Below, one piece after another: positions 21,249-63,700 of a DNA stretch of 64,000 bases. Source of the stretch: a plasmid; sequence record NZ_KX443399.1; one strand, 5' to 3'. A model generated the notes under the pieces. The model saw only the letters and a program-made list of their open reading frames with translations. It was not told the origin of the DNA and did no database searches. Within the stretch, counting starts at the first letter, position 1. Each line of letters begins with the position of its first letter. The position numbers and the translations under genes were made by a program.

Positions 21249-22018
21249 CCGGCGGCTACGACCTAGCCAGCATCGGCCTGGGCGAGACACGCACGGACGC
21301 CGCGGACCAGCCCCACTGAGCTCGCGAGCCAGGATTCGGGAAGCGATACCAGTCACTCGTTGTTCCGTGTGGGTGGGCGGCGATAAGTGTAGTTATCGCA
21401 CTTAAGAGCGCGAGATGGCTGGTCAGCGCCTTTCAGCGTCCTCACCGCCTGCACCTTCGCGCTCCTGCCGATCGCCGCGGCCGCCGGCCTCTGGCGGTGG
21501 CGGCAACTCCGCGTCGAAGCGCGCGAACACCTCCAGGAGACCCGTGAACGGCTCACCCAGGGATAGCGCCAGCATCCTGACTGGGCCCACGGCACACGGG
21601 GCTCTACCTGGGGATATGACATGTCCCCCTTTTTCTCGTCTGCGGCAGCCCGTCCGGCCACCGCGGCCACATGCCTGCACCCTCGGTGAGAGGGCGCCAA
21701 GAGGAGATTCACGATGCCTTCCCGCACCGTGCGCGGCCGCTGGGCCGTGCAATCCGGCCGCATGATGCTCGCCGTGCCCTACGCGCACGCGATCGAGGAC
21801 TCGGTCATCCACCACATGTTCGTCGGCCCCGGCGCGCGCCGGCGGGCGCAGCGCTGGGTCGATGCACGAGCCGATCCGGCGTGACGAGCTAGGTCAGAAA
21901 TACGCTCTGAACTGCCAATATGGCACGTCCCACCCGATCGTATGGGGCATTAGCTCCCATATGGGAAATGCAGGCGGCCGCAGTGCGGAATGTCGCACTC
22001 GAAGGGAAGGATCGCCCT

Positions 22019-22333
22019 ATGGACATTGCTGCGACGATCCTCATCGTGATTGGTGCTGTGGCCGTCGTGCGGTCGCACGTGTACACGCTCCGCGTTGCCG
22101 CAATCGAGCCGCGACTCGGGAGTCCGGCAGCCGCCGAGATCAAGCGCGCGAAGGGCCTTCGTGCGACCGCGGTGGTCTCAGCTGCTGTGGGGGCGGCCGC
22201 TGCTGCTGCCGCGGCGGCCCTCGGCCATGCCCAGACCGTCACCTGGATCGCGAGCGCCGCCGTCCTCGTCGTCGCCCTGGCTGCCCTCTACCGCGGCCTT
22301 TCGGAGTCCATCCCCACGGCCTTGCCGGAGTAG
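22019..22333 (+). CDS. Small membrane protein
   Basis: ATG with an RBS-like GAAGGGAAGGA and two hydrophobic helices. Confidence 0.3.
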   Translation: MDIAATILIVIGAVAVVRSHVYTLRVAAIEPRLGSPAAAEIKRAKGLRATAVVSAAVGAAAAAAAAALGHAQTVTWIASAAVLVVALAALYRGLSESIPTALPE

Positions 22334-22425
22334 CCCGGCAGCGGATAGTCCTGGCTGCAGCCCCGAAAGCTCGCCACCGTCGAACGTGTGTGCGAAAATG
22401 GGTCCGGGTGGGGCGGAGCTGAGGG

Positions 22426-23199
22426 ATGGCCGGGCCAGTGGAGTCGAAGGCAGACACGATCGAGCAACTGCGTCGACGCATGGCCGAGATCCCTGCCCGA
22501 TCGGTCGGTCCGTCCCGGTTGTCGCTGGCCGCGCTGTCCCACGAGCAGCACTCGGCCGATCCGCAGCAATCGCCGACGGCACCCGCGGCGTCGGCGCTGC
22601 GAACCCTCGCTGTTCCGGGCCCGCTCGCCGAGCTGCTGCCGCACGGCGGGCTGGCGCGCGGATCGACGGTGCACGTCTCCGGAGCCGCTGCACTGCGTGC
22701 CGGACTGATCGCATCGGTCACCGGGTCCGGGGGATGGGCCGCGCTCATCGGCAGCCCCCGACTCGGGCTGCTTGCCGCAGCCGAGATGGGTGCCGACTTG
22801 AGGCGGTGCGCGCTCATCCCAGAGCCCGGGCAGGACCCCGTTGCCGTGGCGGCCGTCGTCGTCGACGGAATCGACCTGGTCCTGCTCTCCCTCGGTGGCG
22901 CCGATATACCTCCCAGCCGCGCGAGATCCGTCGACGCCCGAGTTCGCCGCAATGGCGCCGTCCTCATCGTCACCGATGGTCGGTGGCCGTCCGTCGACCT
23001 GCGGCTCGATGCACGCGTCCTCGGCTATCGCGGCCTCGATGCAGGGCGCGGCCGCATCACCGGGATTGACCTGGCCTTCGAGGTCAACGCCCGAGGTCAG
23101 CGGCCGCGCCGCGCCACCATCGCTGTCGCCGGTCGCTCCGGACAAGTTGAATGGACCACCAGCCACTCTGGGCCGGTCGGGCTCCGGGCTGCCCAGTGA
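22426..23199 (+). CDS. RecA-fold ImuA/SulA-like protein
   Basis: 'RGSTVHVSGAAALRAGLIASVTGSGGWAALIG...GADLRRCALIPEPG' resembles the degenerate RecA-like ImuA' core, including the 'G.DL.R...I.P' segment. Confidence 0.4.
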   Translation: MAGPVESKADTIEQLRRRMAEIPARSVGPSRLSLAALSHEQHSADPQQSPTAPAASALRTLAVPGPLAELLPHGGLARGSTVHVSGAAALRAGLIASVTGSGGWAALIGSPRLGLLAAAEMGADLRRCALIPEPGQDPVAVAAVVVDGIDLVLLSLGGADIPPSRARSVDARVRRNGAVLIVTDGRWPSVDLRLDARVLGYRGLDAGRGRITGIDLAFEVNARGQRPRRATIAVAGRSGQVEWTTSHSGPVGLRAAQ

Positions 23200-23800
23200 G
23201 CGCCCCTGGCCGTGACGACTGGACCGAGCCGTTTCCCGAAGCGCCGATCCTGCGCAGACTCCCGACGCCCGCCGCCGTCCACGTCGACACCTCCCGGGTG
23301 CTGCCCGGCTCGGCCGGCTTCACCCGTGCCGACGGGCTACCTCTCCGGGTCCGCGCAGGCGGTGTCCAGCTCGAAGCGACCATGTCAGGGGCCTTACATT
23401 CGTGGTTGCGCGTCGCTGACGGTCGCTGGCTCGCCCAAGTCTGTGTTCCGGTTCGATCAGCCAACGGCCACAGCCATATCGACCTGTGGCTGTGGGTCGA
23501 AGCGTCGTGCGTGACCCCGCGCTGATGGATGACCGGGCTCGCTTAGTGCAGCGCCCCTGAAGCTCGTTGATCCCGACGGTCGAGCTTCCGGGCCTTCCTG
23601 TTCTGCGCGGAAATGGGGTGTGTCCTGCGGAGGCGACACGTCCCGGGTCTTCCGTCGGCGGATCGGAGCCAGCGTCCGGAAGGTGGCGTAGACCTCGATC
23701 GGCCTGCCGTCGAGACCCGAACACCTCGGTGTAGCGACCGGCATCGACCGCTGCCGATTCCTGTAAAGCGCTGTGCCACCGACCGGTCGAGGCGCCACCC

Positions 23801-62417: not shown

Positions 62418-62495
62418 GCGCCATGACAATGCCCATCTGCGCCGCACCGCCGATGTCGCCGCGGCCGTCGCGACCAATGCGCGGTGGATCAAATC

Positions 62496-63287
62496 CTATC
62501 TCGCAGTCAGCCAGTGCTCGGGAAGAGTTGCCTCGGTGGTGATGGCACCCATGTGCTGTGTCTTCTCATTGATCTGGGCCATTTCGAGATTGGCACCTGT
62601 GAGGTCTGCGCCGTTAAGGCATGCCCCGCTTAGATTGGAATCTTGGAGCTGCGCTCCTCGGAGCACAGCATTGTCGAGCTTGACCCCAGATAGGTTCGCT
62701 CCGATGAGAATCGCGTTCGTGAGGTGGGCTCCGGTGAGATCGGCCCCGCGAAGGCGTGCATTGCGAAGGTCGAAGACGAGGTTGGAATGTTCGCACCACT
62801 GCCGAGATCTTCCTCGGATGACCTCGAGGATCGAAGCTCGGACGGCGCGTTCATTTTCGTCGAATCCACTGTCGGCGTGCTGATTTCCATCTAGAGGTCG
62901 GGATTCTGGGGCTAATCTGGCATTGGCGCGCAGATAGGAGCATAGGACGTTGACGCATACCTGCTGTTCCACAGATGCCGTTTCTTGCAGTATTTCTTGA
63001 CCTAAGTTTGCCCAGTCGTCGACCAGTGCGGCGAGCGCATAGACGCCACCTTCTCGGATCGCTGGCTTCTCGTCTGCGAGTTGGGAGACGGCGGTTGTGT
63101 ACCTTTCACGCAGCAGCGATTCACGCTCTCGCAGCGATTGCTCATGGAAGTGTCGGGCATCCTGGGCGCGATGGCGTTGGCCGTTCAGGAAGGCGAGGGT
63201 GCCGGCGGCGATCGCCCCGAGTCCGGCAAATGCCGTTGCGAGTGGTTGTGCAGCGACTTGCCAGAATCCGGGATCGGTTGTTGACAT
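62496..63287 (-). CDS. Membrane-anchored pentapeptide-repeat protein (paralog 3 of 3)
   Basis: 'AVSQLADEKPAIREGGVYALAALVDDW', 'LCSYLR', then 'ADLTGAHLTNAILIGANLSGVKLDNAVLRGAQLQDSNLSGACLNGADLTGANL'. Confidence 0.6.
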   Translation of the reverse strand: MSTTDPGFWQVAAQPLATAFAGLGAIAAGTLAFLNGQRHRAQDARHFHEQSLRERESLLRERYTTAVSQLADEKPAIREGGVYALAALVDDWANLGQEILQETASVEQQVCVNVLCSYLRANARLAPESRPLDGNQHADSGFDENERAVRASILEVIRGRSRQWCEHSNLVFDLRNARLRGADLTGAHLTNAILIGANLSGVKLDNAVLRGAQLQDSNLSGACLNGADLTGANLEMAQINEKTQHMGAITTEATLPEHWLTAR

Positions 63288-63379
63288 GGTCGAACGGTAC
63301 CGATGTTCGATGTGGCGGATCTCGTGGCGGTGAAGTCGGGCGTCGTCCTGTGCCCCAATGTCAACGCGAGACGGAACGA

Positions 63380-63700
63380 GCTGGGGTGATGGCATGTCCC
63401 GGGTGGGGCCGGCGCTGCGGGTGCGGGTGGTGCCGGCGGGTTGGTGTGGGTGGTGTGGGGGTGGCGCGTGGTGCGGAGGGGGCGCCGCAGGGCGGTTTTT
63501 GAATTGCGCTGTGTCGCAATAACTGTTGTGAAACTGCTTGTTGTGGCGTGTGTTTGGGCGGGTTCGCGCGTGCGACTTGGGGTGTGTTGTCGTCTTTGTT
63601 TGGGGGAGTGGGTATTTCGGTGTTTCGAGTGTCGTGGCGGTTTTGGTGGGTGGGGGTGTCGTGGGGTATGATGGGAGCATGATTTCGGGACGGGTTGAGA
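63380..63700 (+). other. G+T-skewed, G-run-rich non-coding segment
   Basis: About 300 nt almost devoid of A and C on the plus strand, with many GGG/GGGG runs (for example GGTGGGTGGGGGTGTCGTGGGG). Confidence 0.5.

Follow-up and report, generated by a model that had tools for sequence, protein, structure and literature searches.

In this study, we examined a 64,000-nucleotide stretch of plasmid DNA (sequence record NZ_KX443399.1, hereafter the window) and an oriented 26-bp motif that recurs in the spacers between its genes. Judged from its sequence, we hold with high confidence that this motif represents a real, protein-recognised DNA site; literature searches by sequence string and by topic did not find the sequence described, and within the searchable literature the site would be new. 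With equally high confidence, the distribution of its copies indicates that the motif is shared by a family of large conjugative plasmids of the Mycobacteriales, mostly linear and of the terminal-protein type (the pVAPN/pNSL1/pBD2/pRHL kind), in which it acts as punctuation at the edges of gene modules and telomere modules. As to its role, we tentatively favour a reading that could well prove wrong, namely that the motif might be a protein-bound boundary, roadblock or global-silencing site of this plasmid family. It had originally been predicted from the window that the motif is the operator or activator site of a regulator encoded by the plasmid itself. The part of this prediction that stood is that the site is non-random, intergenic and specific to the backbone; a promoter-proximal operator or activator site of a TetR, XRE or ribbon–helix–helix (RHH) regulator is not supported by our analysis.

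By megablast comparison with plasmid records, the source replicon is a pVAPN-type linear virulence plasmid of Prescottella (Rhodococcus) equi, and the window is its right arm. Compared with pVAPN03-56 (NZ_AP024199.1), positions 1–15.6 kb of the window show 99.9% identity and 20–44 kb show 96.7%, and the last 20 kb are mosaic, with pieces at about 91–94% identity. The vap pathogenicity island is the low-GC stretch at roughly 4–20 kb. Since positions 63378–63936 match the first 576 nt of pVAPN03-56 in reverse, the right telomere is located at the window end or at most about 60 nt from it.

The motif is clearly over-represented in the window. The 13-mer on which the original prediction was built, ATGACACGTCCCC, occurs twice in exact form, with 0 occurrences expected, and if up to two mismatches are allowed, 11 matches are found where 2.28 ± 1.62 are expected, with a maximum of 7 in shuffled sequence. 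Alignment of the copies showed that conservation runs about 14 nt upstream of this 13-mer, and the motif as found in the window is asymmetric, TGA(C/A)C(T/A)G-N5-A(T/C)GACACGTCCC, with 12 discrete copies in 64 kb. When a 28-column weight matrix was run over both strands, 12 sites scored 25.5–37.0 bits and the next best only 9.0; the matrix was trained on the same 12 copies that it then scored, and the high scores are therefore partly due to its construction. Neither the shuffle counts nor the detection of further copies on other plasmids, which had not entered the matrix, depend on this training. The 12 copies are as follows, scores being those of the weight matrix.

21602..21629, plus strand: motif copy CTCTACCTGGGGATATGACATGTCCCCC, 36.7 bits; 84 nt upstream of a small plus-strand gene
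21906..21933, plus strand: motif copy TCTGAACTGCCAATATGGCACGTCCCAC, 30.6 bits; 21 nt past the stop of the preceding plus-strand gene
23619..23646, plus strand: motif copy TGTGTCCTGCGGAGGCGACACGTCCCGG, 27.2 bits; a sigmaA-like TTGCAA..TAATGT element lies 157 nt downstream
25591..25618, plus strand: motif copy ATCTAACAGCGGAAACGACACGTCCCCC, 35.4 bits; 8 nt within an annotated/predicted open reading frame (ORF) of doubtful start
27124..27151, plus strand: motif copy CTCTACTTGCGGAAATGGCACGTCCCTC, 34.5 bits; 54 nt upstream of the TTGCAA-N18-TAAGGT element at 27206
29218..29245, minus strand: motif copy, 34.5 bits; 15 nt past the stop of the plus-strand gene 27967–29202 and 65 nt upstream of a Phd/YefM-like antitoxin gene
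29653..29680, plus strand: motif copy CGTGAACTGGGGAAACGACACGTCCCCT, 36.4 bits; an ATG at 29710 lies 29 nt downstream, with a ribosome-binding site in between
36510..36537, minus strand: motif copy with the exact predicted 13-mer; in the convergent gap between the sigma/RHH cluster (plus) and the Hsp70-GTPase-dynamin operon (minus)
50620..50647, minus strand: motif copy, 32.3 bits; 147 nt upstream of the minus-strand gene 49588–50472, its 5' edge 54 nt from a divergent TTGCAA..TAAGGG element
54339..54366, minus strand: motif copy, 29.4 bits; 8 nt past the stop of a pentapeptide-repeat gene
54819..54846, minus strand: motif copy with the exact 13-mer; 17 nt past the stop of gene 54445–54801
63375..63402, plus strand: motif copy, telomere-proximal and outward-pointing, 25.5 bits

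Eleven of these 12 copies lie outside predicted genes in a backbone that is 30% non-coding (binomial P = 1.5e-5), the genes having been predicted with a GC-frame gene finder that recovers 50 of the 58 genes called on the reference plasmid by the Prokaryotic Genome Annotation Pipeline (PGAP). It had been proposed that the motif should be given up if its frequency did not exceed chance or if its copies were not enriched between genes, and both possibilities are rejected by the shuffle counts and the binomial test. Ten of the roughly 12 sites listed in the original prediction are real, with coordinates within 2 nt; the site at 31190 is a partial match to the 3' block only (CACGTCCCC with an indel, the 5' block being absent), no copy was detected by the weight-matrix scan at 56120 in reverse orientation, and the copies near 21920 and 50621 had been missed. 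The statement that all copies lie in non-coding gaps is true for 11 of them, while the copy at 25591 lies 8 nt inside an ORF whose start is possibly misplaced. The absence of the motif from the vap island was borne out, with 0 copies there. The distances given from four copies to start codons were roughly correct; however, three of these four copies are in reverse orientation and also lie 8–17 nt past the stop of the preceding gene.

Among 164 copies with full flanks, the consensus reads (A-rich, -9 to -6) N4 GC NN T-G-A-(C/A)-C-(T/A)-G-(C/G)-(G/A)-N-(A/T)-(G/A)-A-(T/C)-G-A-C-A-C-G-T-C-C-C. Positions 3–9 and 15–26 are near-invariant in this set, a near-invariance that was in part imposed by the scan pattern itself. 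The conserved element corresponds to positions 3–26 of the 28-mer together with a weak A-rich patch 10–15 nt upstream, and conservation ends at the CCC. An imperfect dyad, GACCTG-N9-CACGTC, forms 5 of 6 pairs. Positions 6 (C/A) and 8 (T/A) vary freely and their would-be partners, positions 22 and 20, are constant in the same 164 copies; because no compensating change is seen at 22 and 20, no hairpin is being maintained. An Rfam search of the whole window gave 0 matches at the gathering score, and the only copy in the window with an additional 8-bp hairpin and a T tract after it is that at 21602 (terminator-like match 21610–21628). A hairpin, terminator or RNA element was rejected on the lack of covariation, the lack of an Rfam match and the single terminator-like copy. 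On pVAPN03-56 a strong hairpin lies between the members of each tandem pair of copies, but the flanks of the 164 copies fold no better than other intergenic DNA, and this arrangement is not general. The motif is best read as a recognition site for a protein on double-stranded DNA, and this interpretation is supported by its information content and unconserved secondary structure, which are as would be expected of such a site.

Several known types of site were also considered and dropped. The motif was compared with the actinobacterial dif, and the 11-6-11 layout of Xer/dif-like sites is absent. A sigma54-like -24/-12 geometry, suggested by TGGCACG in some copies, is not borne out by the TGACACG of most copies and the missing TTGC element, and RpoN is not known from Actinobacteria. 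A terminal inverted repeat of a miniature inverted-repeat transposable element (MITE) or Tn3-like element was dismissed, as inverted pairs mostly face inward by their sharp CCC ends; no target duplication was seen at the pair of copies flanking the ADP-ribosyltransferase/glycohydrolase module.

On pVAPN03-56 there are 37 copies in 122 kb, none of them between 52.6 and 76.9 kb, where the island is located. About 30 copies are present on the pNSL1-like plasmid NZ_CP126459 (here called pAHZY2), 11 on the Rhodococcus fascians plasmid NZ_CP049750 and 6–7 in the last 49 kb of pBD2. A BLAST search with a 39-nt consensus matched 72 plasmid records, 53 of them from Rhodococcus, including RHA1 pRHL1/2/3, plasmids of Rhodococcus opacus B4 and PD630, and pNSL1; many of these matches are near the ends of linear plasmids. 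When one genome per species was scanned with the exact pattern, at least 120 loci were obtained in Rhodococcus, Prescottella subtropica, Nocardia, Mycolicibacterium and Mycobacterium, mostly on plasmid-sized contigs, and the Nocardia and Mycolicibacterium loci have conjugation or ADP-ribosyltransferase/glycohydrolase genes in common with pVAPN. About 20 scattered single matches in unrelated taxa came up in the same scan, and these are consistent with chance, since roughly 70 chance matches are estimated for the whole collection. A phage origin was rejected after a pattern scan of viral contigs gave just three single matches, which is chance level. The Mycobacterium avium plasmid p1-JPH1, matched by BLAST, has weak in-gene matches only and was not counted as a member of the family; this linear plasmid carries its own whiA (NZ_AP020327.1 14784–15794; locus L136 9785–10795), as well as dnaB and many phage-like genes. 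The motif is thus spread family-wide across genera and occurs on plasmids such as pAHZY2, whose annotation shows no sigma/RHH cluster, and this speaks against the proposed tie to the regulators of the plasmid in the window.

Gene context was counted for 166 non-redundant copies from about 100 loci, 139 of which lie outside predicted genes. The next gene is co-oriented with the motif in 63 cases and opposed in 58, and in tandem gene pairs the motif is sense 40 times and antisense 29 times. Convergent gaps hold 22 copies and divergent gaps 18. About 30 copies have a stop codon within 30 nt (15 at the 5' end of the motif and 15 at its 3' end), compared with 12 near starts. On pVAPN03-56, for which PGAP annotation is available, 22 copies point toward the start of the next gene and 15 toward the 3' end of an opposed gene; seven of the latter are found 12–18 nt past the stops of clearly real genes, including rep and the genes for a pentapeptide-repeat protein and a DD-endopeptidase, and in five copies the TGA of the motif itself is the stop codon of the upstream gene. 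In orthologous regions at 60–80% identity the motif is kept next to one unrelated flank, and in most cases the retained flank is the gene directly at whose 3' end the motif lies. An antisense copy is present at the rep stop in all three complete plasmids (pVAPN03-56, pAHZY2 and the R. fascians plasmid), and the copy at the DD-endopeptidase stop is retained in pVAPN03-56 and pAHZY2. The orientation of the copies, their proximity to stops and the fact that they usually follow the upstream gene therefore argue against a promoter or a promoter-side operator as the general function of the motif; the copies in convergent gaps count against an operator of this kind because there is no promoter there to control.

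A copy inside a gene was found in the ADP-ribosylglycohydrolase gene, which holds an antisense copy across the codons for G-D-V-S-S (pVAPN03-56 52139–52166, corresponding to L003 2139–2166; pAHZY2 34988–35015). This copy is kept in three Rhodococcus orthologues and is not present in the Mycolicibacterium or R. fascians orthologues. We considered it as a meaningful exception and rejected this idea, as it is confined to one clade and is partly explained by the GDVSS coding sequence.

According to the boundary, roadblock or silencing model, which we tentatively favour from the placement of the copies, a conserved plasmid-encoded DNA-binding protein would occupy all copies, and the bound protein would delimit or silence transcription units by roadblock or insulation rather than act as a promoter-side operator. 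The copies serve as a kind of punctuation, filling gene-free spacers at module edges, often right after stops and in either orientation, with one copy closing each telomere module. Such an action may be likened to that of the stoperators of mycobacteriophages, or to that of KorB and P1 C1 sites located far from promoters. The stoperators of cluster A mycobacteriophages, which are the sites of the L5 repressor gp71, are asymmetric, are present in dozens of copies in short intergenic spaces, sometimes overlap stop or start codons and are found at mosaic boundaries. The motif resembles them in its asymmetry and in its many copies in short intergenic spaces of one Mycobacteriales replicon. However, stoperators are 13–14 bp long and have one orientation relative to transcription, whereas the motif has 24–26 bp and an orientation that is nearly independent of the genes, and the sequences are unrelated; the single orientation of stoperators is not seen in the tandem gene pairs of the full set, and on pVAPN03-56 about 20 such copies are sense and 8 antisense. 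The KorB OB sites of the IncP plasmid RK2 and the operators of P1 C1 are dispersed across the backbone, some far from promoters, and are bound by one plasmid-encoded global regulator; those of C1 are asymmetric. About a dozen dispersed motif copies across a plasmid backbone are similar to this arrangement. In contrast to the KorB OB site, a 13-bp palindrome bound by a ParB-family protein, the motif is non-palindromic, conserved across genera and biased to the 3' ends of genes, and no ParB-family gene was found among the annotations examined. It is possible that the motif is a dispersed site for a global regulator of the KorB-like or stoperator-like type, which would be the originally predicted function in its broadest form.

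The best available candidate for the binding protein, on evidence that is suggestive only, may be an 85-aa HTH_17 (AlpA/Xis-like) protein, which is encoded at pVAPN03-56 13028–13285, in the left arm and hence outside the window. It shows 62–76% identity across 50 plasmid records and is present in every plasmid with at least three BLAST-detectable motif copies. In pVAPN03-56, pAHZY2, pBD2 and a further Rhodococcus locus (L013), a convergent motif copy is located 10–25 nt past the stop of its gene. When the proteins from 98 motif-bearing 8-kb loci were clustered, no universal gene neighbour of the motif emerged, no family being found in more than 8 loci; the commonest neighbour family was a 145-aa HTH_17 protein, in 8 of the 98.

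Several observations weigh against the boundary or silencing model. If the motif were the operator of a plasmid regulator, which would be expected to evolve fast, it is unusual that 24 positions are near-invariant across genera. Roadblock or insulation also leaves unexplained the shared orientation of adjacent copies, seen in 105 cases compared with 37 in which it is not shared (orthologous arrangements being partly counted more than once), as well as the uniform polarity of the 18 left-arm copies of pVAPN03-56, described below, which all point toward the telomere. Strong hairpins between motif pairs are also seen on that plasmid, although, as noted above, the flanks of the 164 copies do not fold better than other intergenic DNA. 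With regard to the candidate binder, the co-occurrence of the 85-aa protein with the motif is confounded by the common plasmid backbone; the protein is absent from plasmids with 1–2 detectable copies, such as pRHL2 and pRHL3, and was not found in the 8-kb loci of Nocardia or Mycolicibacterium.

The copies act as recombination breakpoints at which modules are shuffled and plasmid ends exchanged. When pVAPN03-56 was compared with all other loci, 17 of 224 ends of high-scoring segment pairs (HSPs) fell within 10 nt of a copy, while 3.4 would be expected; this is an enrichment of homology-block ends at copies of about 5 times. For intergenic HSP ends the figure is 13 of 64, with 4% expected. A one-gene module (54445–54801) that the window has in common with pVAPN03-56 is bordered on the left by the copy at 54339 and on the right by that at 54819 (HSP 54331–54839), and beyond the latter the gene order departs from that of pVAPN03-56. 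A 3.5-kb ADP-ribosyltransferase/glycohydrolase module is likewise flanked by two copies. Plasmid pVAPN1572 lacks window positions 23075–29653, and the junction of this 6.6-kb indel lies within the 5' half of the copy at 29653, which is paired with an TGACCTGG pseudo-site inside a gene; the junction gene is truncated, and the TGA of the motif provides its stop. The inner boundary of the terminal inverted repeat lies 3 nt into the copy at 63375 (HSP 63378–63936 against the left end of pVAPN03-56, 576–1). That copies collect breakpoints follows from their being near-identical 26-bp repeats.

Two side observations concern the same regions. The 6.6-kb segment missing from pVAPN1572 and present in pVAPN03-56 carries genes for DUF6884 and DUF6573 proteins, an HTH gene and others. 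Between window positions 54.3–57.2 kb and pVAPN03-56 106.5–109.7 kb the order of two modules is swapped, an N-formylglutamate-amidohydrolase-like segment having changed places with a TetR/KAS III segment, and the junctions of these swapped modules (55397/55447 and 57223) carry no motif copy.

The breakpoints at the copies raise the possibility that the motif is a dedicated site for recombination and module exchange, at which either a specific enzyme or the host machinery joins gene modules and plasmid ends when these are swapped among linear plasmids. We regard this as an unlikely explanation. In its favour are the excess of block ends, the two modules that each lie between two copies, the position of the indel junction within the motif (5' half) and the boundary of the terminal repeat; moreover, adjacent copies are mostly direct repeats regardless of gene direction, genes fused to the motif use its TGA as their stop codon, and an imperfect dyad is present. 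Integron attC sites and the pdif sites of Acinetobacter are comparable, as these are also located at the 3' ends of small variable genes, sometimes supply the stop, form direct repeats and lie at module borders. The placement at gene 3' ends is thus that of a cassette border; however, the motif has neither the hairpin architecture of attC nor the 11-6-11 Xer layout, no fixed crossover was seen among the breaks, its arms show no covariation (positions 6/22 and 8/20) and its flanks are asymmetric. The annotations of pVAPN03-56, pAHZY2 and the R. fascians plasmid include neither an integrase nor a recombinase, and a Pfam scan of the large conserved backbone proteins revealed no primase or recombinase. 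Breaks occur at either edge of the motif and not at a single fixed crossover point, the sole resolved junction fits microhomology or ordinary homologous recombination, and breakpoints are to be expected as a by-product at any dispersed 26-bp repeat.

A role in the replication of plasmid ends was also considered. The motif could be a polar replication or telomere signal, that is a site for loading or priming on the lagging strand, of which the outermost copy fixes the 3' overhang for terminal-protein patching, or else a guide for a translocase. On pVAPN03-56, pAHZY2, the R. fascians plasmid and pBD2, an outward-pointing copy lies 517–552 nt from the plasmid end, on the 3'-ending strand, and forms the innermost of the blocks conserved in the telomere module. 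On pVAPN03-56, all 18 copies in the left 40 kb, from the telomere to rep, are on the minus strand and point toward the telomere whatever the direction of the genes, as do all copies in the corresponding arm of pAHZY2, and in three plasmids a copy abuts the rep stop codon. For a polarity of the KOPS, Chi or Ter type, the strand would have to follow replication or translocation on both arms. The polarity of the motif is perfect in the conserved arm and at the telomeres and mixed elsewhere: it fails in the other arm of pVAPN03-56 (about 10 copies against 9) and is seen in 7 of 11 copies overall in the R. fascians plasmid. Copy-free gaps of up to 16 kb occur on pVAPN03-56, the known polar signals KOPS and Chi are 8-mers that tolerate coding DNA, and no plasmid primase was recognised in the Pfam scan mentioned above. 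We consider this second explanation distinctly improbable.

The telomere module itself is about 530 nt long (window 63403–64000; L002 1–552; L135 48697–49206) and is common to pVAPN, the pNSL1-like plasmid, the R. fascians plasmid and pBD2. It includes a G/T-rich stretch and a conserved GGGGTATGATGG..GCATGAT block, and toward the end there are several palindromes of the GCGCAGCG type. A conserved operon for a DUF2637 protein, a 604-aa protein and a 264-aa protein is located next to parA (pVAPN03-56 40692–44506, locus L002). The 264-aa protein shows HTH-like segments, and its match in Pfam is weak and excisionase-like. Judged by position, the products of this operon could be candidates for telomere-associated and terminal proteins, none of them being firmly assigned by Pfam.

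In a bolder and, in our estimation, unlikely proposal, the terminal-protein-capped linear plasmids of the Mycobacteriales would have an undescribed system for cassette or arm exchange, or for telomere-linked replication, and the motif would be its cis signal. If this were true, all gene modules and telomere modules would have one oriented 26-bp site as their border, and modules and ends would be swapped by a dedicated and perhaps new enzyme; such a system would be functionally analogous to integrons or pdif modules and mechanistically distinct from them.

The presence of a sigma factor gene in the window suggested a further model, in which the motif is a plasmid-specific promoter read by an alternative sigma factor, for example a SigM-like sigma factor of the extracytoplasmic function (ECF) type, with TGAAC/TGACC as a -35-like element, CGTC as a -10-like element and the A-rich patch as an UP element. 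The gene, at 34933–35460, codes for an ECF sigma factor that contains regions 2 and 4 and, among the families, matches SigM best, with a score below the cut-off of that family. It belongs to a plus-strand operon (34459–36174) for an acidic 116-aa protein, the SigM-like sigma factor, a 62-aa ORF, the product of which is possibly an anti-sigma factor, and an RHH protein. The minus-strand Hsp70-GTPase-dynamin operon (36604–42546) on the other side of the convergent gap is also conserved on Rhodococcus and Gordonia plasmids carrying homologues of the sigma factor.

In line with a promoter, the two blocks of the motif resemble ECF consensus elements (GGAAC-N16-17-CGT) and stand in the correct order, ribosome-binding sites are always 3' of the motif, with the closest co-oriented start at 12 nt, a terminator directly precedes some copies, and in the tandem contexts of PGAP-annotated plasmids the ratio of sense to antisense copies is about 3:1. 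Promoters of the ECF type, such as those of sigmaW and sigmaE, have a spacing of 16–17 nt. In the motif, however, the spacing from AAC to CGT is 13 nt in all copies, which is 3–4 bp below this norm, and an alternative upstream GAAA(T/C) block is 19 nt from (C/T)GAC. The sigma operon (34459/34933) has no motif copy upstream and is preceded instead by a canonical GGGAACC -35-like box near 34391. Homologues of the sigma factor turned up in no more than 45 plasmid records. The factor is missing from pAHZY2, pNSL1 and the R. fascians plasmid, all of which carry the motif, and plasmids without the factor have 11–30 copies. A promoter is also at odds with the near-equal orientation of the 166 copies (63 against 58) and with the 22 of them in convergent gaps, with the 22 and 15 copies in the two orientations on pVAPN03-56 and with the tendency of the motif to travel with its upstream gene. 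A sigma factor of the host would need a chromosomal regulon, and none is evident, the at least 120 loci of the pattern scan being mostly on plasmid-sized contigs. On spacing, co-occurrence, the missing autoregulatory copy and orientation, we rejected an ECF-sigma promoter; a novel plasmid-specific promoter we regard as having little chance of being correct.

A second conserved element, TTGCAACAT.RCAGG.A..ACCTGTAAGGT, is present at 23803–23832, 27206–27235 and 50702–50731 on the plus strand of the window and at about 7540–7580 on the minus strand of pVAPN03-56. It has the form of a sigmaA-like -35/-10 pair, the 18-nt spacer of which contains the palindrome ACAGG-N5-CCTGT, likely an operator. 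In two cases its -35 is exactly 54 nt from an edge of the motif, once from the 3' end and once from the 5' end. This element looks like a regulated promoter with its operator to a much greater extent than the 26-bp motif does.

Lastly, that the motif is a selfish or structural interspersed repeat, comparable to repetitive extragenic palindromic (REP) sequences or MITEs and without a dedicated plasmid function, is very improbable: its placement at gene 3' ends and in convergent gaps is REP-like and inverted pairs 59–165 nt apart exist, but there is no conserved palindrome, the length is 26 bp, no target duplications were seen at the pair examined, the plasmid annotations list no RAYT or IS200-like transposase, and the copies at rep, the DD-endopeptidase gene and the telomere keep their position across plasmids that are 60–75% identical. 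REP sequences, bacterial interspersed mosaic elements and the DNA uptake sequences (USS/DUS) are similarly short, conserved extragenic repeats that favour gene 3' sides and convergent gaps; they are, however, chromosomal, palindromic or in inverted pairs, and present in hundreds to thousands of copies, whereas the motif is plasmid-restricted, non-palindromic and present in tens.

The virulence island of bovine and human isolates of R. equi resides on plasmids of this family, as do many of the catabolic traits found in Rhodococcus. The genes of their mosaic backbones are almost all annotated as hypothetical. A site that is present 10–40 times per plasmid in at least four genera could be used as bait for pulling down its binding protein, and it may also serve as a marker by which this plasmid family can be recognised in draft assemblies. 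The motif is also a tangible candidate for the signal by which these plasmids organise their transcription units, the exchange of modules or the replication of their ends.

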